Source of the DNA: a virus
Strand: one strand, 5' to 3'
IMG/VR virus record: IMGVR_UViG_3300036851_000497
Location: 2,558-66,557 of that record
DNA length: 64,000 bases
A program made the position numbers and the translations under genes. The notes below the pieces were generated by a model, which was given only the letters and a program-made list of their open reading frames with translations, had not been told where the DNA came from and did not search any database. Shown here in pieces: positions 37,340 to 58,309 of this stretch (within the stretch, counting starts at the first letter, position 1; each line of letters starts with the position of its first letter).

Positions 37340-37566
37340 GGTTCAATGTGACGATCCTCACGCCTCAGAAGGATCGTAATTCCATTGATATCGATCCCGA
37401 TTAATGAATGCTCGAAATGCTTTTCGCATTGTAGTCTTAGGGGCACGCCTTGCGGACCTTTGTAGATTAAACGACTGCCGCAGGAAGGGCATTTGAAAGC
37501 GGGTTCAATCAAAACCATTTTGATGAGATCCTTTGCACCGGAATCATTGACAATAATTTTCAGCAT
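37336..37566 (-). CDS. small Zn-ribbon protein
   Basis: CPSCG...CEKH. Confidence 0.5.
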   Translation of the reverse strand: MLKIIVNDSGAKDLIKMVLIEPAFKCPSCGSRLIYKGPQGVPLRLQCEKHFEHSLIGIDINGITILLRREDRHIEP

Positions 37567-38288
37567 TGCTGATCCTTCCGAACCCGATGCAATATCCCAT
37601 CGACCTGTAACAACTCCCCGGTTTTTGGATCAGCGAACCCTGGCTCTAGCGAGACAATTCGATAACCCTGCCCGCGCAGCATTTTTAACATATCCTCTAT
37701 TAGAACCTCGCCGTCGTAGAGCGGGATCAACGACAATTCGAGCTGGATCGTATCAATATAATCAAGCGAACTTTCAGCGCCTCTAAGCACATTGGCTTCA
37801 AACCCCTGGGTATCAATTTTGAGCAGGATATTGGCCCCTGACGGAGAGAGCTCAGAAAACCACGAATCCAATTGCTCAATAAAAATTTCCTCTTGGCCGA
37901 TGTACCTAGACTCTGGTGCGGCGGCCAAGTGAGACGGCAGCATGGCGCGGATCGAACTGCTGTAAGAATTACCGGCAATATTGATGAACGCAGTTTCTCT
38001 TTTATCGCCCAAGGCGAAATTGTAGGTTAGCCATAATGGATCATCGGCAGCGCGTCGTTTTAATTCAACATAGGCCAGATAGAGCGGTTCAAAGGAAACG
38101 ATTTTTCCCCTGTAGCCCATCTTGCGCAGCTCGCGCACGTACTGGCCGCTATTGGCTCCAACGTCGATCACGAGATTAATTTCGTAAGTTTGCAGAAGTT
38201 GTTGCCTGCGCACGAGTGGGGCATCGCGGATGATATCAAGGCCAGCTTTTCTCAGTTGATGGCGAATCATTTGGTTGATGGCACTCAT
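37560..38288 (-). CDS. FkbM-family SAM methyltransferase
   Basis: VIDVGANSGQY, IVSFEP, ALGD, LLKIDTQGFE..VLRGA. Confidence 0.92.
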   Translation of the reverse strand: MSAINQMIRHQLRKAGLDIIRDAPLVRRQQLLQTYEINLVIDVGANSGQYVRELRKMGYRGKIVSFEPLYLAYVELKRRAADDPLWLTYNFALGDKRETAFINIAGNSYSSSIRAMLPSHLAAAPESRYIGQEEIFIEQLDSWFSELSPSGANILLKIDTQGFEANVLRGAESSLDYIDTIQLELSLIPLYDGEVLIEDMLKMLRGQGYRIVSLEPGFADPKTGELLQVDGILHRVRKDQQC

Positions 38289-41698: not shown

Positions 41699-41873
41699 TT
41701 TGCCTACGTTTTCGCTCAAAACGCATTTGCACTTCACGTCCTTGCCAAGATTTCATGCGGTCTCCGCGCAACGCCTTTGTTGTGCAGCGCAGACAAATAC
41801 CGCTCGGCACAACACCGCTCATGCCACATTCAGCGCACCTTTTCCCCATATCAATCGTGACATCTGCTTTCAT
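41688..41873 (-). CDS. small Zn-finger protein
   Basis: CAECG...CLRC. Confidence 0.5.
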   Translation of the reverse strand: MKADVTIDMGKRCAECGMSGVVPSGICLRCTTKALRGDRMKSWQGREVQMRFERKRRQNEI

Positions 41874-42922
41874 GCAAATTTCCCCCTCTCCGGCTCCGGC
41901 AAGCGAGCGTCGCTCAACACTTCCCGATACTGATCCAAATATCCTTCAGTCGTCGCTATATTCCGGTGCGCCGCCGCTTTCTTGATCTCTTCCCTGCTGT
42001 ACCCGAGCCGATCCATCTGCGCGAGCGAGTAGGCGCGAATGTCGCGCGTGGTGACGCCTTCCGCTGCAGCTTTTGCTCTGGCTCGCTTCCACATCGAATT
42101 CAAGCCTGACTTCGTGAACGCGGTTCCGCCGGCCGTTTGAATGATGAAAGCGTTCCCGCCAGGAAGCGCCTTCACCTTGGCGAATGATCGCGCGCGCTCC
42201 AGCGTTTGCTGGATTTCTGCGGTAATCAGCACCGACACATCGGCACCGCTTGAATCTTCAGTCTTGGTCGGCGTGAAATGAATCCGCCCCTCGCTAATCT
42301 GCGACTCGCGCAATAGCCTGATCTCGGTCGGCCGCTGGCGCGTGAGGTAGGTTAGGCGCAGAAAGCACTGGCCGATTGGCGGCAGCGCATCGTAGAGCGC
42401 CCAATAGATTTTTGCAGTGAAACGACCTTTGCGTTTCTTCGGCGCCTTGAGCCGGATTTCCGCGCAGGGATTGACTTTGATCCAATCGTTGCGGTAGACG
42501 ACGCACCAAGAAAAGAAAGTGGAAAGCCGCGCTTTATAGCTGCGCCGCGCGGTTGGCACTTCGGCAAAGTTCGAGAGGAAATCCAGCACGTCTTTCGGAG
42601 TGACCTCGCCGACGTCGAACTCGATGAAGGATTGCTCGATGGTCTCAAACATCCGCTCATACTCGCGGCGGACATCATAGGACTTGAGCTCGGGGAGCTT
42701 GGCCTTGAGAAAGGCGGCGATGCACTTTCCCATGTTGCCGCCGACTTTGGCATCTTCGCCGAGAAAGGCAGCGAGCGCATCGAGGAGCGCCTGTTCGCCG
42801 TCCTCAACCTTCGTGAGCGGATTCCACTTCTGCTTCGGTCGCCCCGTCTTCGGATTGCGCTCGGCGAGATCTTGGATGTAATAGTGGCGATTGTGTGATT
42901 GGACAACGCGAGTGATCTTCAT
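41870..42922 (-). CDS. int: tyrosine integrase
   Basis: TRQRPTEI (R), TTRDIRA (HxxR variant), AAHRNIATTEGY (H, Y). Confidence 0.9.
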   Translation of the reverse strand: MKITRVVQSHNRHYYIQDLAERNPKTGRPKQKWNPLTKVEDGEQALLDALAAFLGEDAKVGGNMGKCIAAFLKAKLPELKSYDVRREYERMFETIEQSFIEFDVGEVTPKDVLDFLSNFAEVPTARRSYKARLSTFFSWCVVYRNDWIKVNPCAEIRLKAPKKRKGRFTAKIYWALYDALPPIGQCFLRLTYLTRQRPTEIRLLRESQISEGRIHFTPTKTEDSSGADVSVLITAEIQQTLERARSFAKVKALPGGNAFIIQTAGGTAFTKSGLNSMWKRARAKAAAEGVTTRDIRAYSLAQMDRLGYSREEIKKAAAHRNIATTEGYLDQYREVLSDARLPEPERGKFA

Positions 42923-47692: not shown

Positions 47693-49183
47693 TCATAAGA
47701 CATCACGCAATTTTGATTGCTTGAAATCCTGCGGCATTCTGCTGAGATAGTCGCACAGCATCTTGGCAAATCGATCTATCGGCTGGAGTTCTGAGTATCT
47801 GGCTAGCCTGTGATTTGTCCATTGCAGATAAGAACACAACGCCGTGCAAACCATTGCCCATAGCGCAGAAACCTTAAGCGGCTTCGTGATAGCCTCTTTG
47901 ACGTAGTTCAGATCAATATTGAGCTCAATAATAAAAGTGCCGGCTTCCTCTGTTACTCGATGCGCATCTTCTCCCAAGGATCTTGGAATTATCTTAAGCA
48001 GACGAGTAGGCTGATCATTTTCTTTTCTTTGTTTGTCACCATCGCGATCGCCTTCCTGTTTGCTGATTAGTTTGCCGCGTGGTTCCGGGGTTGGCTTGCC
48101 ATATGTCTGATGAGGCGTTGTGATCGGTATGATGTCCATCCCGCCATACTTGCCACCTGCCCGTGTTGTTCTCATAACCTGAGAAAGACGCGCACCTATG
48201 TCATCAAGACATAATTCTAGCTCGAGCTCTTTCTCATAATCGGATAACAATTCCAATAGGTCTTTACACTGTTCGTAGATGGCGTCGAGCAATTCATCCC
48301 TATACAGGGCAACAGCGGTCTTATTTGTCGAAAGACGAGTCTTCCATGTATCCGCTAAATCTACTCGGCCATAAAAACTTATCGGCAGCGCGCGGCGATC
48401 CTTCCAAGGATTGCGGTCGATCTCGATAACGCGGTGACCGAAATTGATAAACAATGCATTGTGGCGACTCTCGTATTTTTCCTTGGCACCAATGAACACG
48501 CCATAGGCGGCTCCTTTGATCTCGCCGCTGAAAGATCGCTTATGTGTCAATATAGGTTCTGGTGGTTCGTCGGTCTCTACCTCGTAAATGACTGGATACT
48601 TTCTTCGCGTATCCGTGATCTTGATGTGCCGCCCCTCACGCAGCGCAGGCGCAAATGTCATTCCGAGCAAGCGACACAACGCGTCCATATGGAGCCGAGA
48701 CCTGCCCGCATGCACTTTCTTGATGGTGATAGTTGTGCCGCTGCGTCGAGTAGTGCGCTTCCCCGAGCCGGCATATTCGGATGGCCATTTTCTAGCCCGC
48801 GACCAGTTAACTGTGTGCTGATGCAGAAAGCCCTTTTTTATGGTCTCAACGCTTATTTCATAGCCGAGCCATAGTGACGCTGCTTTAGCGCCAACACCAT
48901 AAAGACCTATGTCACTTTTAGAAAATTTGGATTCAGATTGCCCAAGTCTAAATAGCGCGTTGACATTTTGAAGGCCGCTGCCGTCATCCTCTATGGTGAT
49001 TTCGTTGGGACCAATCGTGAATGAGATGACAGAAGCTGCCCCCGCATCGGCGGCAAAACTGTTATCCACGAATTCTGCCAATGCCGCGGACCAGCCGAGG
49101 TCTGCATTTACATAGGATCGGATGATATGTAGGTCAGGGATTAACTGTCCCAATGTCTTCGAATGGTGTGTCTTGCGTTTCAT
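47693..49183 (-). CDS. GHKL (MORC/HATPase_c_3-like) ATPase
   Basis: ALAEFVDNS (N box), IEDDGSG (G1), IGLYGVGAK (G2), SGTTITI (G3). Confidence 0.85.
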   Translation of the reverse strand: MKRKTHHSKTLGQLIPDLHIIRSYVNADLGWSAALAEFVDNSFAADAGAASVISFTIGPNEITIEDDGSGLQNVNALFRLGQSESKFSKSDIGLYGVGAKAASLWLGYEISVETIKKGFLHQHTVNWSRARKWPSEYAGSGKRTTRRSGTTITIKKVHAGRSRLHMDALCRLLGMTFAPALREGRHIKITDTRRKYPVIYEVETDEPPEPILTHKRSFSGEIKGAAYGVFIGAKEKYESRHNALFINFGHRVIEIDRNPWKDRRALPISFYGRVDLADTWKTRLSTNKTAVALYRDELLDAIYEQCKDLLELLSDYEKELELELCLDDIGARLSQVMRTTRAGGKYGGMDIIPITTPHQTYGKPTPEPRGKLISKQEGDRDGDKQRKENDQPTRLLKIIPRSLGEDAHRVTEEAGTFIIELNIDLNYVKEAITKPLKVSALWAMVCTALCSYLQWTNHRLARYSELQPIDRFAKMLCDYLSRMPQDFKQSKLRDVL

Positions 49184-49815
49184 CTGGATGACTCCTTTTG
49201 CCCTTTCTCCCATGCCTTGCGTAAATCATCGAAGTTGAGTCCCTTAGCGATAATCAAAGCCACTACCTCGCGCAATAGTTCGGACGGTTTGAGGCGCATG
49301 TAAATCGCATGCGCCCCAATTACCGCTTTCTTTGGTGAAACCACTGGTTTCACCGGTGTCTTCTTTACCCGCAACCGCTTTACCTGCTCTCTGGTCATCA
49401 GCGGATGAATTTTTTCCTTTGCGGCGGCAAGTTCATCATTGCTCAATAGCGATAGCTCATACAGGGTTCCCCAGTGAGGTGGTAGTTCTTTTGGTGAGAA
49501 TGCATTCTCACCAGTGCCATGTAGCGAGAAACGGTGATACACCTTGATGAGCCGATCTGCGGTATCACTCCCGAATGGGAATGCGTTATCGGCGACTTTG
49601 GTGCGACCAGTGGTCTCACCAAAGGCCGCAAGCCACTTGTGTTCATCCGATTGAAGCACGATCTTAAGGCCGTTCAAGCGCGAACCCATCTCGATCCATG
49701 CTTGCGCCGTCTGGTTTACGAGCCGCCAACATAAGTCGGCCGTTTTTTTGATGGTGATGTGCTCTGGCTCTGGTGCTGCGAATTGCACGACGACGCCTGC
49801 TGACTTCCGATTCAT
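49180..49815 (-). CDS. DUF3102-like protein
   Basis: WIEMGSRL..LK, FPFGSDTADRLIK, LPPHWGTLYELS; GGAGG SD before ATG 49815. Confidence 0.65.
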   Translation of the reverse strand: MNRKSAGVVVQFAAPEPEHITIKKTADLCWRLVNQTAQAWIEMGSRLNGLKIVLQSDEHKWLAAFGETTGRTKVADNAFPFGSDTADRLIKVYHRFSLHGTGENAFSPKELPPHWGTLYELSLLSNDELAAAKEKIHPLMTREQVKRLRVKKTPVKPVVSPKKAVIGAHAIYMRLKPSELLREVVALIIAKGLNFDDLRKAWEKGQKESSR

Positions 49816-51852: not shown

Positions 51853-51895
51853 AGAGTAGCAAAATGCTATTATCTAGTCAATAGCGTTCTGCTAC
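51853..51895 (-). promoter_or_regulatory. pL promoter with two operators
   Basis: TTGACT-17 nt-TACTCT; 15-bp operators GTAGCAAAATGCTAT (51856) and ATAGCGTTCTGCTAC (51881) match those between cI and cro. Confidence 0.8.
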
Positions 51896-51958: not shown

Positions 51959-52342
51959 TCATCGACCGTGAACCGCGATGACTTTACCGTTCTGTGTATA
52001 AGCAAAACCGTACTGGGTGACGTTGTAACCAGGATAACGGTATACCCATTGCTTCGTCGCTCCGTAATTGGTGATGATTTTGTTGACTCGATCTGGGATG
52101 CCCCACGAGCATGCCAGGGCAGCTTCGCTCATGCCGACGAAGACAGTCTGTTCGTTGATCGCTTGCCATTCGCGGTCAGTGATGGCGTTGCGCCGAATCA
52201 GTTCGGCCTTGATCTCGGGGCTCGTTAAGAACGCATTGCTGTAGCGTTCGCATAAGTCAACGGAATCCGCAGTGGAGATTCGTTCTGGACTCAAGGCGCA
52301 CGAGGCGATCAAGAGTGTGGACAATAGAATGGTGCTTTTCAT
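51959..52342 (-). CDS. lipoprotein, BamE/SmpA-like; superinfection-exclusion candidate
   Basis: Lipobox IASC; VGMSE...WGIP...QWVY...NGKV. Confidence 0.65.
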   Translation of the reverse strand: MKSTILLSTLLIASCALSPERISTADSVDLCERYSNAFLTSPEIKAELIRRNAITDREWQAINEQTVFVGMSEAALACSWGIPDRVNKIITNYGATKQWVYRYPGYNVTQYGFAYTQNGKVIAVHGR

Positions 52343-52364
52343 TGATGCTTCTTGCTTGCTTTTC

Positions 52365-52550
52365 TCATCTTTCTCTCCTATTCGATCCTTGCTCCAGATA
52401 TTGCAGCGCCAGCTCCAGATGCCCAGGCAGACTATATCGCCCGCCTTCCCAGGCTTGATAGGTGCGCAGATTAACGCGCAAGCGCTCGGCCATCTCTGAC
52501 TGCGATAGCTTGAGCGCGGCACGGCGGGATTTAAGTTCGGCGGCGGTCAC
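52365..52550 (-). CDS. small XRE HTH regulator (Aca-like)
   Basis: ELKSRRAALKLSQSEMAERLRVNLRTYQAWEGG. Confidence 0.82.
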   Translation of the reverse strand: MTAAELKSRRAALKLSQSEMAERLRVNLRTYQAWEGGRYSLPGHLELALQYLEQGSNRRER

Positions 52551-52731
52551 ATTGATTTGTAAAACGTGAGATCGTCAAGGACGGCGTGAATTGCGGATGC
52601 CTCGTCGTCTTCGTTTTCGTCCCAGTTCCAGTTGTCGCGCGCTGTTTCAATGCAGCCGATGACATGAGGGGCTTTTCGGCATCACTCGAAGGAGTTACCC
52701 CATTTCCCGTGAAAATGATGGTTTGCAAGTA

Positions 52732-52935
52732 TTAGGCGACGACTAAATCAAAAGTGGCGCGTTCTTCGTCGGTCAACCGGCGGTCAATCTTGATAAGACC
52801 GTAACGGGTTTTTCCTCGCGGGAGGTCATTACGGATATGCGCGATGTCCCAAGGTGCTTCCACGAATTCCCAAGTGATCCCACGGGGAAGCGTGAACACA
52901 GAAGCGGGGCGGAGTGTTGGGCGGTATATGAACAT
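52732..52935 (-). CDS. DarA C-terminal-domain-like small protein
   Basis: Y....RP......P.G...RYG.I..DR.LTDEE...FDL pattern, as I recall for P1 DarA_C. Confidence 0.55.
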   Translation of the reverse strand: MFIYRPTLRPASVFTLPRGITWEFVEAPWDIAHIRNDLPRGKTRYGLIKIDRRLTDEERATFDLVVA

Positions 52936-52968
52936 TTCGTTTCCTTGTTTGGTTGAGTTCATAGCCTT

Positions 52969-52996
52969 ATGATACGCGATTCGCGTAGGATGTCAA
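52969..52996 (-). promoter_or_regulatory. strong promoter with internal palindrome
   Basis: TTGACA-16 nt-TATCAT containing TACGCGA-n-TCGCGTA (52973-52987). Confidence 0.8.
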
Positions 52997-53025
52997 GTGT
53001 TTCTTTGCCTTTACTCAAAGCATGT

Positions 53026-53352
53026 TTATCGCATTTCAGGTCCGGTTGGTTTTTTCTTCCTTTTTGCGCGCGCTTCTTTAAGGGCACTCTCTTTGCTTTG
53101 ACGATATTGCAGCAATAAAGCTAATTCGTCCTGAGGCAACGAGGTTTCGTCGGCCCTATCCATCCATCCACGTTGCTGCCCTATTTTTAACTCAATTTTC
53201 CTCGCTACCCTATTACCCATATTGCGGGTGCCGTTTTTAATCTGACTCAGATAGGAAGCGGCAACGCCGGTTTTATCTTCAAGCGCCTCAAATGTTTTGT
53301 ATTCCGCTCGGAGTGCGAGCAATTTCCGACGCCGGATTTCCTGAATCTCCAT
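53026..53352 (-). CDS. cI: CI-like repressor without S24 peptidase domain
   Basis: RRRKL..L...SYLSQIKNG.RNMG...ARKIE......GWMD; divergent from cro. Confidence 0.8.
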   Translation of the reverse strand: MEIQEIRRRKLLALRAEYKTFEALEDKTGVAASYLSQIKNGTRNMGNRVARKIELKIGQQRGWMDRADETSLPQDELALLLQYRQSKESALKEARAKRKKKPTGPEMR

Positions 53353-53363
53353 GAGCGCATTAC

Positions 53364-53430
53364 ATAGCAGTTTGCTATGCGTAGGAATACGCAAAGTGCT
53401 ATTGCTATCGTAATAGCGTTTTGCTACTAT
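53364..53430. promoter_or_regulatory. OR operators and pR
   Basis: ATAGCAGTTTGCTAT (53364), TACGCAAAGTGCTAT (53388), ATAGCGTTTTGCTAC (53413); TTGCTA-17 nt-TACTAT. Confidence 0.78.
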
Positions 53431-53452: not shown

Positions 53453-53659
53453 ATGGATGCAAAAACATTTTTAGAGACCTTCGGGAAGGAAGAAGCGGCC
53501 CGCGTCGCTGAACGAGCGGGGACAAATTATGCGTATTTCAGCCAAATCGCATACGGTCATCGTCGTCCCTCTGTCGATTTGGCTCACGAACTCGTTATCG
53601 CTTCTAACAAGCGAATGAGCTTTGAGCTTTTGTTGCAACCAAAAGTGCGTAGTGCATAA
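53453..53659 (+). CDS. cro: Cro-like regulator
   Basis: AERAGTNYAYFSQIAYGHRRPS; position. Confidence 0.82.
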   Translation: MDAKTFLETFGKEEAARVAERAGTNYAYFSQIAYGHRRPSVDLAHELVIASNKRMSFELLLQPKVRSA

Positions 53660-54169: not shown

Positions 54170-54177
54170 AAACAATT

Positions 54178-54252
54178 AGCGGGGTAGTTCAATTGGCAGA
54201 ACGTCGGGCTCATAACTCGAAGGTCGCAAGTTCAAATCTTGCCCCGCAACCA
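54178..54252 (+). tRNA. tRNA-Met(CAT), initiator-like, atypical
   Basis: Cloverleaf with TCGGG-CTCATAA-CTCGA, GCAAG-TTCAAAT-CTTGC, 1:72 mismatch, encoded CCA; one C short at the T/acceptor junction. Confidence 0.78.
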
Positions 54253-55533: not shown

Positions 55534-55778
55534 ATGGAATGTGAACGAGTGTCCGCAGTCCGCTTGCGTATTCCTGGTGGAGATCTCTTGGATCAATACA
55601 TTTTCGTGGACGAGAAACATGCTACGGAATGGTTGAAACAAAGGTTTGTTAACGACGAAGAGTATTTCGTTGAGCTAGGCAGTGTGGAAAAGACACCGTG
55701 CTGCGGAAGGCGACTGAACTTTCAAGTTAGTCAGAGCATGAAGCCATCCGAATACTTACGGATAAAGCGGGAATGGGT

Positions 55779-57152
55779 ATGAATTATCTCTCGCTCTTCT
55801 CGGGAATCGAGGCCGCTACCGTCGCTTGGAAGCCATTCAGATGGCATGCAGTCGCATTTTCCGAAATCGAGAAATTCCCTTGTGCGCTACTCAAACATCA
55901 TTACCCGGACACACCCAATTACGGCGATGTGACGGAGTTCGCAAAATGGCCAGATCATGACGCAATTGACCTTATCGTTGGCGGCTCCCCATGCCAATCC
56001 TTCAGTGTCGCCGGACTTCGGCGCGGGCTGGATGATCCGCGTGGCAACCTCACGCTCACCTATCTTGCAGTTGTTGAGCGATATAAGCCCTGCTGGGTGG
56101 TATGGGAAAACGTGCCCGGAGTTTTGTCTGACGACCGAGGACGGACTTTTGGAGCCTTTCTCGGAATCTTGGGGCAACTCGGGTATGGGTTCGCCTACCG
56201 AGTTCTTGACGCTCAATTCTTCGGAGTTCCCCAACGGCGGCGCCGCGTGTTCGTTGTCGGCCATCTTGGAGACTGGCGATGTGTTGCAGCGGTACTTTTT
56301 GAGCGCGAAAGCCTGTCGTGGAATCCTGCGCCGAGCAGAGAAGCGCGGGAAGATATTGCCCCAACAATTAGCGCGCGCACTCAAGGCGGCGGCGGACTCG
56401 GAACCGACTTCGACTGCGATGGTGGATTAGTGGCTGACACTGTTCGGAGTCATCCGCGTCCCGGCTCAAACTCAGTAGGTCTCATAACTGGCGCTATCAG
56501 CAGCAAGTGGTCGAAGGGCACAGGCGGTCCCGCAGGAGATGAATGCTACAACTTGGTTACGCATGCATTACTGGCTGATGGATTCGATGCGGGCGAGGAT
56601 GGGACGGGGCGGGGAACACCATTGGTCGCCTCATTTCATCCCAACGATCCGGGCAAACACAACGACGCGAATACAGCACCTGCATTGCGCGCCGGACACA
56701 ACGGCGGTTGTTATGGCAGTAGGGCAGCAATCGCCTTCTCCTGCAAAGACCACGGCGCGGATATGAGCGAAATCGCCCCGAGTCTGCGCGCGATGGGGCA
56801 CGATGGAAGCCATGCGAATGCTGGCGGGCAGGTGGCGATCGCATTTCACGAAAATCAGCGCGCTGAAGTTACCTTGAACGATACAGCCGGTTGTCTCAAG
56901 GTCGGCGGTGGCAAGCCTGGTCAGGGGTATCCGGCAGTTGCGCACGGCATATCGGTACGCCGACTCACGCCCGTCGAGTGTGAAAGATTGATGGGCCTGC
57001 CGGATAACTACACGCTGATTCCCTATCGCGGCAAGCCAGCTGCAGATGGACCGCGTTACAAAGCGCTCGGCAATTCTTTCGCCGTTCCTGTGGTGCGGTG
57101 GATCGGCGAACGCATTCAGTTTGTTGATTCAATCGTGAGAAAGGCGGCATGA
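55779..57152 (+). CDS. C5-cytosine DNA methyltransferase
   Basis: LSLFSGI, GGSPCQSFS, WENVPG, PQRRRR, RRLTPVECERL, LGNS. Confidence 0.95.
   Translation: MNYLSLFSGIEAATVAWKPFRWHAVAFSEIEKFPCALLKHHYPDTPNYGDVTEFAKWPDHDAIDLIVGGSPCQSFSVAGLRRGLDDPRGNLTLTYLAVVERYKPCWVVWENVPGVLSDDRGRTFGAFLGILGQLGYGFAYRVLDAQFFGVPQRRRRVFVVGHLGDWRCVAAVLFERESLSWNPAPSREAREDIAPTISARTQGGGGLGTDFDCDGGLVADTVRSHPRPGSNSVGLITGAISSKWSKGTGGPAGDECYNLVTHALLADGFDAGEDGTGRGTPLVASFHPNDPGKHNDANTAPALRAGHNGGCYGSRAAIAFSCKDHGADMSEIAPSLRAMGHDGSHANAGGQVAIAFHENQRAEVTLNDTAGCLKVGGGKPGQGYPAVAHGISVRRLTPVECERLMGLPDNYTLIPYRGKPAADGPRYKALGNSFAVPVVRWIGERIQFVDSIVRKAA
55957..56430 (+). CDS. nested alternative-frame beta polypeptide (M.EcoHK31I-like)
   Basis: SLSAILETGDVLQRYFLSAKACRGILRRAEKRGKILP..L..AL, nested in the +1 frame of the MTase. 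Confidence 0.7.
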   Translation: MTQLTLSLAAPHANPSVSPDFGAGWMIRVATSRSPILQLLSDISPAGWYGKTCPEFCLTTEDGLLEPFSESWGNSGMGSPTEFLTLNSSEFPNGGAACSLSAILETGDVLQRYFLSAKACRGILRRAEKRGKILPQQLARALKAAADSEPTSTAMVD

Positions 57153-57382: not shown

Positions 57383-57591
57383 AACAACTCGCCCGCATCC
57401 TCGACGAACTCGCGAAGGCGCCGGCAACGGTAGAAGACTTGGCCGAAGAAACGGGGTTGCGTACTGAAGCTGTGCGCTCAGCTCTTCACGAATTGCAAAA
57501 GGACGGATATGCCCAAGTCATGGGCTCGTTTCCGAATGTACGTGGCCGAGGGCGTGAGCGGAATATTTGGCGGGTGAGCGATGCCATTTGA
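57379..57591 (+). CDS. winged-helix protein
   Basis: TVEDLAEETGL...VRSALHEL. Confidence 0.7.
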   Translation: MKQLARILDELAKAPATVEDLAEETGLRTEAVRSALHELQKDGYAQVMGSFPNVRGRGRERNIWRVSDAI

Positions 57592-58309
57592 AAAAGTTGA
57601 GATCGGCGAAGCGATTTTGCATCGCGGAGATTGCTTGGAAATCCTGCCGACCTTATCCAAGGTGGATGCGGTGATTACTGATCCGCCATATTTCTTACCA
57701 GCATCGCATTATCAGACGCGGACAAAGTTTCGCCGTACCTTTTCCGACCTTGGAATTCTTGAACACTGGGCGCGTTCTTTTTTCACAGAACTCGACCGGA
57801 TCGTTTCTCTGGATGGGTCTTTATATATTTTCTGTGATGGACAGAGTTATCCGCTTTTTTATTGGCATGCATACGGAATATGTAAATCATGCCGTCCTTT
57901 GATTTGGGACAAGTTAAATTCTATAAACGGTTACGGATGGAGACACCAGCACGAGATCATTTTGTGGTGCGAGCGTTGCGACGCTAAACCGCTTCCGACT
58001 GGCGATGGCGATGTACTTAGAACACCGCCAGTCGGAATTGAAGTGAGAAATCATCCGGCAGAGAAACCAGTAGAGTTGACGATAGCGCTCTGCAAAAAAA
58101 CATATGGCGTAATCCTTGATCCCTTCATGGGTTCTGGCACAACCGGCGTTGCCTGTATGAATCTAGGTCGCAAGTTTATCGGCGTGGAAATAGAGGAACG
58201 CTATTTCCAGATTGCGTGCGAACGAATTGAAGCGGCACAACGTCAACAGCGCCTATTTGAGCACGAGCCCTGCTCGCGGTCCGAAACCGCGAGTCTCCCA
58301 GGTATGTAG
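57581..58309 (+). CDS. N4/N6 DNA methyltransferase (beta class)
   Basis: ITDPPY, HPAEKP, ILDPFMGSGTTG. Confidence 0.94.
   Translation: MPFEKVEIGEAILHRGDCLEILPTLSKVDAVITDPPYFLPASHYQTRTKFRRTFSDLGILEHWARSFFTELDRIVSLDGSLYIFCDGQSYPLFYWHAYGICKSCRPLIWDKLNSINGYGWRHQHEIILWCERCDAKPLPTGDGDVLRTPPVGIEVRNHPAEKPVELTIALCKKTYGVILDPFMGSGTTGVACMNLGRKFIGVEIEERYFQIACERIEAAQRQQRLFEHEPCSRSETASLPGM

Follow-up and report, generated by a model that had tools for sequence, protein, structure and literature searches.

We analyzed a small transcription unit beside the cI-like repressor gene of a phage genome from a soil metagenome (IMG/VR virus record IMGVR_UViG_3300036851_000497, 66.6 kb, of which a 64-kb stretch, here called the window, was studied throughout). 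The unit is headed by a near-consensus promoter with a palindrome across its spacer and contains a gene for a 67-amino-acid (aa) protein of the DarA_C superfamily, followed by a gene for a 61-aa XRE-type helix-turn-helix (HTH) protein. Our results favor, with a somewhat better than even chance, the view that the unit is an acr-aca10-type accessory operon under its own repression, located in the immunity region of the phage and carrying the DarA_C protein as a candidate counter-defence cargo. Cassettes of this kind are already known, and the novelty of this one lies in its cargo, a DarA_C domain. A first-pass annotation of the same DNA had proposed an autoregulated anti-defence cassette on the basis of the promoter, the palindrome and the two open reading frames (ORFs), and had omitted a decayed ORF in the gap between them, a lipoprotein gene coupled to the HTH gene, the terminator and the immunity-region position of the unit. 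The coordinates of all features are collected in Table 1.

The near-consensus promoter TTGACA-16-TATCAT of that annotation was recovered, agreeing with the sigma-70 consensus at 11 of 12 positions, and was the sole match of at least 11/12 when both strands of the 64 kb were scanned. The palindrome said to lie in its spacer is an exact 7+1+7 repeat, although it is not wholly contained there: it occupies the spacer and overlaps the first 2 nucleotides (nt) of the -10 element. Perfect 7+1+7 palindromes were found three times in the window, compared with 3.9 +/- 2.0 times in 200 shuffles, indicating that the palindrome by itself is unremarkable and that what goes beyond chance is its place in the sole near-consensus promoter. 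The order of a 67-aa ORF and then a small XRE-type HTH gene was also confirmed, both being present on the minus strand, with the HTH protein scoring above the Pfam cut-offs of HTH_31 (27.4 bits, cut-off 27) and HTH_3 (25.6 bits, cut-off 23).

When the HTH protein was compared with all sequences of the Protein Data Bank (PDB), the top four matches were Aca2 (8w35_A, 7vjo_B and 7b5j_A, three distinct sequences) and Aca10 (7xi5_A), with E-values of 2e-5 to 1.7e-4 in the profile search and 1.2e-4 to 5.5e-4 in the single-sequence search. Against Aca10 the values were 1.3e-4 and 5.5e-4, respectively, and 21 of 46 residues were identical in the HMMER alignment. According to Lee et al. (2022, PMC9410881), Aca10 contacts DNA through Q22, R34, Q37, Q38 and R44, with R44 being critical, and has the conserved dimer residues G49 and E52. 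The corresponding residues of the HTH protein are Q17, R29, Q32, A33, R38, G43 and E46; six of the seven are therefore kept, and Q38 of Aca10 is replaced by Ala. The homologue P0154 has Asp at the position of E46. The Aca2_YdiL profile (PF08965) aligned over profile positions 1-59 of 118 only, with 19.1 bits, under the 23.8-bit cut-off, and the HTH protein, being half the length of Aca2, did not match the full-length profile including its C-terminal domain. These comparisons support, with moderate confidence, the assignment of the HTH protein as a small single-domain Aca10-like protein. A structure model of the HTH protein was poor (predicted local distance difference test score, pLDDT, 73.6, with helices merged) and was not used; the first Foldseek row obtained with it was Aca2 of ZF40, with an E-value of 1.0.

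The genes upstream of HTH homologues, whose survey the first-pass annotation had put forward as informative on the cassette, agreed with its proposal. Two other copies of the HTH gene were found, and the context could be read for one of them, in a related phage (locus L007) whose early-left genes and cII region are 79% and 85% identical to those of the window. The L007 HTH protein is 94% identical to that of the window, and DNA homology between the two loci (89%) sets in precisely at the HTH start codon. Ahead of the HTH gene, L007 has a gene for a 69-aa orphan unrelated to the window cargo, and about 50-130 nt upstream of this orphan gene lies an inverted 37-nt island containing the -10 element and the palindrome with 2 mismatches. 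The regulator holds its place while the gene ahead of it changes, and genes of the cargo family are found elsewhere without the regulator, which is the pattern of acr-aca loci. The layout of an Aca-repressed operon, as first proposed, is upheld by this exchange of cargo together with the Aca2 and Aca10 matches at the top of the PDB search, the six kept residues and a promoter-operator geometry like that of aca10 (see below).

Further observations were made on the HTH gene and its relatives. Upstream of the orphan gene, L007 also has a perfect 8+2+8 inverted repeat at 2205-2235, CAGCCGTT-GA-AACGGCTG, unrelated to the window palindrome. The remoter HTH relatives L017-L019, which share 48-55% identity over 29-38 residues, were too far removed for conclusions on cargo. 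Over 52300-53100 the window was reproduced identically in an independent assembly of what is probably the source sample, the Logan contigs of run X1. These contigs break within the HTH gene, where a 35-nt piece (52483-52517) had a depth of 33 against 11.6 and 15.7 on its flanks; this hints at a second variant in the same sample, with this part of the HTH gene and other neighbours.

The cargo ORF has a Shine-Dalgarno sequence, AAGGAA, beginning 11 nt upstream. An alternative ATG start at 52962, giving 76 aa, was rejected, as the alignments with homologues begin at residue 2-4 of the 67-aa form. The first-pass annotation had likened this ORF to the C-terminal domain of P1 DarA, and this stands for the protein family, while the ORF itself falls short of Pfam membership. 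The Pfam profile DarA_C (PF18789) scored 20.2 bits with the 67-aa protein (E 8.2e-4, profile positions 2-67 of 70), under the gathering cut-off of 27 bits. On the other hand, the profile of its family was aligned by hhalign with residues 412-479 of P1 DarA (probability 82.6%, E 9.6e-6), a segment that coincides with Pfam DarA_C on P1 DarA (residues 411-472), and a profile search of PDB sequences gave residues 412-480 of DarA (9ukm_I, E 8.3e-4). Since its own score is under the Pfam cut-off, the 67-aa protein was filed, by sequence comparison, as part of a DarA_C superfamily branch that is divergent and mostly stand-alone, and not as a Pfam-defined member.

An initial word-index search found one relative of the 67-aa protein. 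A HMMER scan with a two-sequence profile then collected 191 family representatives at E<=1e-3, of which 70 were at E<=1e-10. Most are 65-120 aa long and a few are long (1359, 1452, 539 and 423 aa); at E<=0.01, DarA_C was matched by 80 of the 105 short members and by 22 of the 28 long ones, including 4 that also exceeded the Pfam cut-off. In agreement with this, all 30 hits of the query in the protein atlas were clusters labelled 'DarA C-terminal domain-containing', mostly viral. Besides DarA_C, the cargo matched nothing in Pfam, PHROG, NCBIfam or PADLOC, and no toxin family was matched in these four collections. The 67-aa protein is mildly basic (11 K+R, 9 D+E) and is therefore no DNA mimic.

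An AlphaFold2 model of the 67-aa protein, built with 105 sequences, had a mean pLDDT of 97.1 and shows a beta-beta-beta-alpha-beta unit. In BFVD, a collection of predicted viral structures, the best match of this model was an unnamed 70-aa phage protein (A0A6J5MGN5; TM-score 0.86, E 1.9e-6), and the weaker rows (E 4e-3 and weaker, TM-score 0.45-0.58) contained small phage proteins labelled DarA_C. The 67-aa protein is thus predicted to share its fold with other DarA_C proteins. Among solved structures the model had no match (best Foldseek PDB E 1.8, best VIA-align Z 3.5), which does not imply that the fold is novel.

DarA_C also occurs in large architectures (P0023, P0104, P0125 and P0143), comprising a fusion with a GNAT acetyltransferase (423 aa), a fusion with DUF3489 (179 aa) and proteins of 1359 and 1452 aa; the BFVD search added a giant phage protein of 1395 aa. 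Polyvalent proteins of such architecture are read as early conflict effectors by Iyer et al. (2017, PMC5512222). Full-text literature searches, which did not cover supplements, returned no study of a stand-alone DarA_C protein.

The contexts of eight other DarA_C loci were read, namely L004, L005 and six non-redundant IMG/VR loci; three further IMG/VR loci were near-duplicates. No HTH gene was found within about 1.3 kb at any of the seven loci scanned with Pfam (L004 and the six from IMG/VR, L005 being too short), and no promoter of at least 9/12 was found within 300 nt upstream at any of the eight. The neighbours at these loci were dUTPase, GIY-YIG and HNH endonucleases, DUF932, DUF3850, DUF6900, DUF6378 and DUF968. 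Other searches for related loci were negative: tblastn with the 67-aa protein gave no match in the phage collection or in plasmids, tblastn with the central family members P0043 and P0085 gave none in the phage collection, a search of viral contigs with close alignments revealed no related loci, and the phage collection had no blastn match to the locus. When 401 genomes of one class were searched with a profile, a single marginal match (E 6.5e-4) was obtained, which was not used, and the one match in genome contigs (L002) was discarded as a 15-residue chance match, a profile search of its genome having found nothing.

The cargo ORF and the HTH gene are 181 nt apart. The gap contains a decayed ORF that lacks a start codon and is interrupted by an in-frame TGA; its final 44 residues, with 10 D+E, end in an acidic tail, its guanine-cytosine content by codon position (0.56/0.39/0.58) is as in real genes of the phage, and its stop overlaps the HTH start (ATGTGA). 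No homologue of this ORF was found, and the gap matched no Rfam family and showed no stable RNA fold (z +0.93). The decayed ORF is probably a remnant of an earlier cargo gene that was once coupled to the HTH gene, and its sequence points to a third past partner of the HTH. Downstream, a 9-codon mini-ORF bridges the HTH stop and the start of the lipoprotein gene through two ATGA overlaps, suggesting a chain of translational coupling from the HTH gene to the lipoprotein gene. The lipoprotein is identical at 63 of 124 residues to the product of L007:1614-2012, which has a different place in the L007 immunity region.

A 13-bp motif, TAGCAnnnTGCTA, is present in four copies in the window, perhaps with a fifth, where 1.13 would be expected. 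The immunity region has two of the copies on either side, and they are likely to be the left and right operators (OL and OR) of the cI-like repressor. Read in this way, they place the cassette inside the immunity region. The end of the cI-like gene is 30 nt upstream of the -35 element of the cassette.

From these data we infer the following sequence of events. Upon DNA entry the promoter would fire through host RNA polymerase, with no phage factor required, and a burst of the 67-aa DarA_C protein, the candidate counter-defence effector, would result. The 61-aa Aca10-like protein would be made from the same transcript, and its dimer would bind the 15-bp palindrome and block the -10 element, ending the burst; the unit would stay quiet in the lysogen too. 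The lipoprotein gene would be co-transcribed and translationally coupled to the HTH gene, and the decayed acidic ORF would be the leftover of a former cargo gene. Restriction as the target of the cargo is a first guess only, suggested by analogy with the label of P1 DarA. A broader proposal, which we consider rather doubtful, is that the bare DarA_C domain is a self-sufficient inhibitor of nuclease-based host defence, this being the active module that P1 DarA and the giant polyvalent proteins would carry in the virion and that here would be an immediate-early protein, made in the cytoplasm under Aca10-type control.

Several points weigh against a counter-defence operon of the acr-aca10 type. 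In temperate phages the interval between cI and OL usually holds defence or exclusion genes expressed in the lysogen. To our knowledge acr operons normally carry no lipoprotein gene, and a lipoprotein gene is the last of this unit. Small XRE domains are common as antitoxins and as phage repressors; the HTH protein resembles Aca proteins moderately (E about 1e-4), and its weak NCBIfam matches were to VC1465, RstR, NadS and MqsA. The operator of aca10 has 19-21 bp compared with 15 bp here, where the inner spacing is 2 bp shorter. The anti-restriction label belongs to the whole DarA virion protein and not to its DarA_C domain; the 2026 cryo-electron microscopy model of P1, as described in PMC12810830, covers DarA residues 70-382 only, and DarA_C (411-472) is outside it. 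In L007 the palindrome is imperfect, is inverted relative to the HTH gene and ends at the recombination breakpoint, no recognisable promoter was found at this copy, and this is the single readable HTH context among two relatives. No known anti-defence protein was matched by any of the cargo proteins in searches made without an anti-CRISPR library, and PADLOC, which covers defence systems only, had no match for the cassette proteins.

The location of the unit suggests another explanation, that of a moron cluster serving the lysogen in the place of rexAB, expressed by read-through from the cI promoter as well as from its own promoter and acting in superinfection exclusion or defence. Phage lambda carries rexA-rexB between cI and OL/PL, and here too the unit lies between the cI-like gene and OL with a terminator just before OL, while none was found from the cI-like gene to the cassette promoter. 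Lipoproteins are a common type of prophage exclusion protein; the lipoprotein gene is the last of the unit, is chained translationally to the HTH gene and is also kept in the L007 immunity region. We nevertheless judge such a cluster unlikely, because a near-consensus promoter with an operator of its own would be superfluous for expression from the cI promoter, the DarA_C relatives at the seven other scanned loci lie among early or accessory genes and not in immunity regions, the best matches of the HTH protein are Aca repressors, and the PADLOC search just mentioned found no defence model. A further reading has the HTH protein as a generic XRE regulator, for example of the lipoprotein gene or of lysis-lysogeny timing, and the DarA_C gene as a recombined passenger having a non-defence role, for instance as a structural or DNA-binding accessory. 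This would fit the mosaic nature of the region, seen in the relic ORF, the inverted 37-nt scar in L007 and the homology that starts at the HTH start codon, as well as the coupling of HTH and lipoprotein genes, the heterogeneous contexts of DarA_C relatives and the fact that no activity is known for the DarA_C fold. The promoter and operator, on the other hand, stand directly before the DarA_C gene and not before the HTH gene, no second promoter was found in the gap between the two genes, and operator geometry and residue pattern match Aca10 specifically, so that we give a passenger gene only a small chance.

A toxin-antitoxin module had been named by the first-pass annotation as an outcome that would overturn its proposal, and the gene contexts gave it no support. 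It would be a type II pair of the toxin-first kind, as in higBA and mqsRA, with the 67-aa protein as toxin and the HTH protein as antitoxin and autorepressor. In its favor, a small ORF is followed by a small XRE HTH gene under a palindromic operator, the HTH of the MqsA antitoxin is a weak NCBIfam match of the HTH protein (E 2e-4, far short of the cut-off), and HigA-2 is among its PDB sequence matches (E 0.73). The two genes are, however, parted by a 181-nt gap with a dead ORF, and the 67-aa protein matches no toxin family. The pairing of a 94% identical HTH protein with an unrelated gene in L007 and the absence of an HTH gene at the seven DarA_C loci scanned with Pfam weigh against an obligate pair, and we regard a toxin-antitoxin module as highly improbable.

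The PHROG matches across the window are those of a lambda-like temperate siphovirus. Three methyltransferase genes were found, which may serve self-methylation against restriction and are consistent with a phage under restriction pressure; PHROG classes those at 55773-57152 and 57581-58309 as DNA methyltransferases, and the 459-aa one has a further match to a family labelled DNA primase. A tRNA-Met gene (anticodon CAT) lies at 54177-54251 on the plus strand, between the cII-like gene and the early-right genes. In the early-left operon, a 506-aa protein (47693-49213, minus strand) had weak matches only, to phrog_6203 and to PADLOC MzaB (E 2.4e-3, residues 42-128), and is possibly a GHKL-type ATPase.

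Table 1. Features of the cassette and of its surroundings in the 64-kb window
Feature	Position	Strand	Basis
Sigma-70 promoter: TTGACA (52996-52991), 16-nt spacer, TATCAT (52974-52969)	52969-52996	minus	11/12 consensus positions
Perfect 7+1+7 palindrome TACGCGA-a-TCGCGTA, putative HTH operator	52973-52987		exact, one copy in window
Cargo gene, 67-aa stand-alone DarA_C-superfamily protein	52935-52732	minus	ORF and family evidence
Decayed ORF: 21 codons, in-frame TGA (52684-52682), then 44 codons	52550-52747	minus	frame listing
61-aa XRE-type HTH, GTG start, putative Aca10/Aca2-like autorepressor	52550-52365	minus	Pfam and PDB sequence matches
9-codon mini-ORF MRKASKKHQ, preceded by GGAGAG	52339-52368	minus	read from sequence
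127-aa lipoprotein-like gene, signal peptide with lipobox LIASC, last in unit	52342-51959	minus	ORF; phrog_11546 only
Intrinsic terminator closing the unit just before OL	51926-51907	minus	8 stem pairs and T run
TAGCAnnnTGCTA copies, putative OL	51857 and 51882 (region 51857-51894)		motif match
TAGCAnnnTGCTA copies, putative OR	53365 and 53414 (region 53365-53426)		motif match
cI-like repressor gene	53454-53026	minus	phrog_5736 and phrog_12107, E about 1e-9
cro-like gene	53453-53659	divergent from cI-like gene	PHROG
Integrase	41870-42922	minus	PHROG match
Methyltransferase gene	37560-38288	minus	PHROG
Methyltransferase gene	55773-57152	plus	PHROG
Methyltransferase gene	57581-58309	plus	PHROG
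RecE-like exonuclease, cII-like gene, primosomal protein			PHROG matches
Small and large terminase, portal, major head protein, tape measure, J-type tail protein, endolysin			PHROG matches

Aca-controlled operons have been the most productive signpost to new phage counter-defence genes, and in this case they lead to a domain that has borne an anti-restriction label since 2017 with no assigned activity. With this cassette the function of DarA_C becomes open to direct testing, since the 67-aa protein, with its high-confidence model and its simple promoter-operator, is easy to clone, assay and crystallise. If the proposed role is true, it would be the first function for a domain widespread in phages (about 190 protein clusters and the giant polyvalent proteins), and Aca10-type cassettes would deliver anti-restriction as well as anti-CRISPR cargo. 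Otherwise, this would be another Aca10-type cassette with an orphan cargo.

Like the accessory genes of the lambda cI-rexA-rexB arrangement, those of the unit share the orientation of cI, occupy the interval from cI to OL/PL and end at a terminator; unlike rexAB, the unit has an operator-controlled promoter of its own and no homology to RexA or RexB. Its cargo has the same size and predicted fold as the stand-alone 'Defence against restriction A C-terminal domain-containing' proteins of uncultured phages (for example A0A6J5MGN5 and A0A8S5S6L6), whereas the loci read for such proteins lack the sigma-70-type promoter (eight read) and the HTH gene (seven of seven scanned), both of which are present here. 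P1 DarA, a 639-aa internal head protein of the Dar anti-restriction system, is homologous to the 67-aa protein at about residues 412-479. DarA, in contrast, has a DarA_N domain; its gene belongs to a late operon that also includes hdf, ddrA and ddrB, and the protein undergoes processing and is packaged into the capsid, whereas the 67-aa gene encodes the bare domain without DarA_N behind a sigma-70 promoter and beside cI. The hxr gene of P1, a so-called 'Xre homologue' located last in the dar operon, was considered as a parallel and dropped, having no Pfam HTH.

Aca2 of Pectobacterium phage ZF40 (PDB 7vjo, 7b5j and 8w35), the top sequence match of the HTH protein among solved structures, aligns at residues 5-54 with residues 1-49 of the HTH protein and is described in PMC9410881 as an autorepressor of an acr operon that acts through inverted repeats in the promoter. 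It has 115-125 aa and a C-terminal domain that is absent from the 61-aa HTH protein. Aca10 was named by Leon et al. (2021, PMC7913775) in the acrIC7-acrIC6-aca10 operon of Pseudomonas citronellolis, and its structure (7XI5) and operator were reported by Lee et al. (2022, PMC9410881). According to the latter, the aca10 operon has the promoter TTGCAA-N16-TATTCT, overlapped at both the -35 and the -10 element by a palindrome with a 1-bp centre, and the minimal site is ATACGCTCATTGAGCGTAT; the counterpart in the window is TTGACA-N16-TATCAT with TACGCGAaTCGCGTA. The operator here stops short of the -35 element, which the Aca10 operator overlaps, and the cargo here is a DarA_C-domain protein whereas that of the aca10 operon is a proven anti-CRISPR. 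The unit also differs from the aca10 operon in the dead ORF that separates cargo from repressor, in the lipoprotein gene downstream of the repressor and in its location in an immunity region. The spacers, ATACGCTCATTGAGCG for Aca10 and TCCTACGCGAATCGCG here, are both of 16 nt and, compared by eye, both have GCG before the TAT of the -10 element. The two systems share the outer half-sites TACGC/GCGTA, with GCGTA overlapping the TA of the -10 element, and a strong promoter whose 16-nt spacer is spanned by a perfect palindrome with a 1-bp centre reaching onto the -10 element. In both, a small cargo is followed by a small single-domain HTH protein, of 65 aa in Aca10 and 61 aa here.

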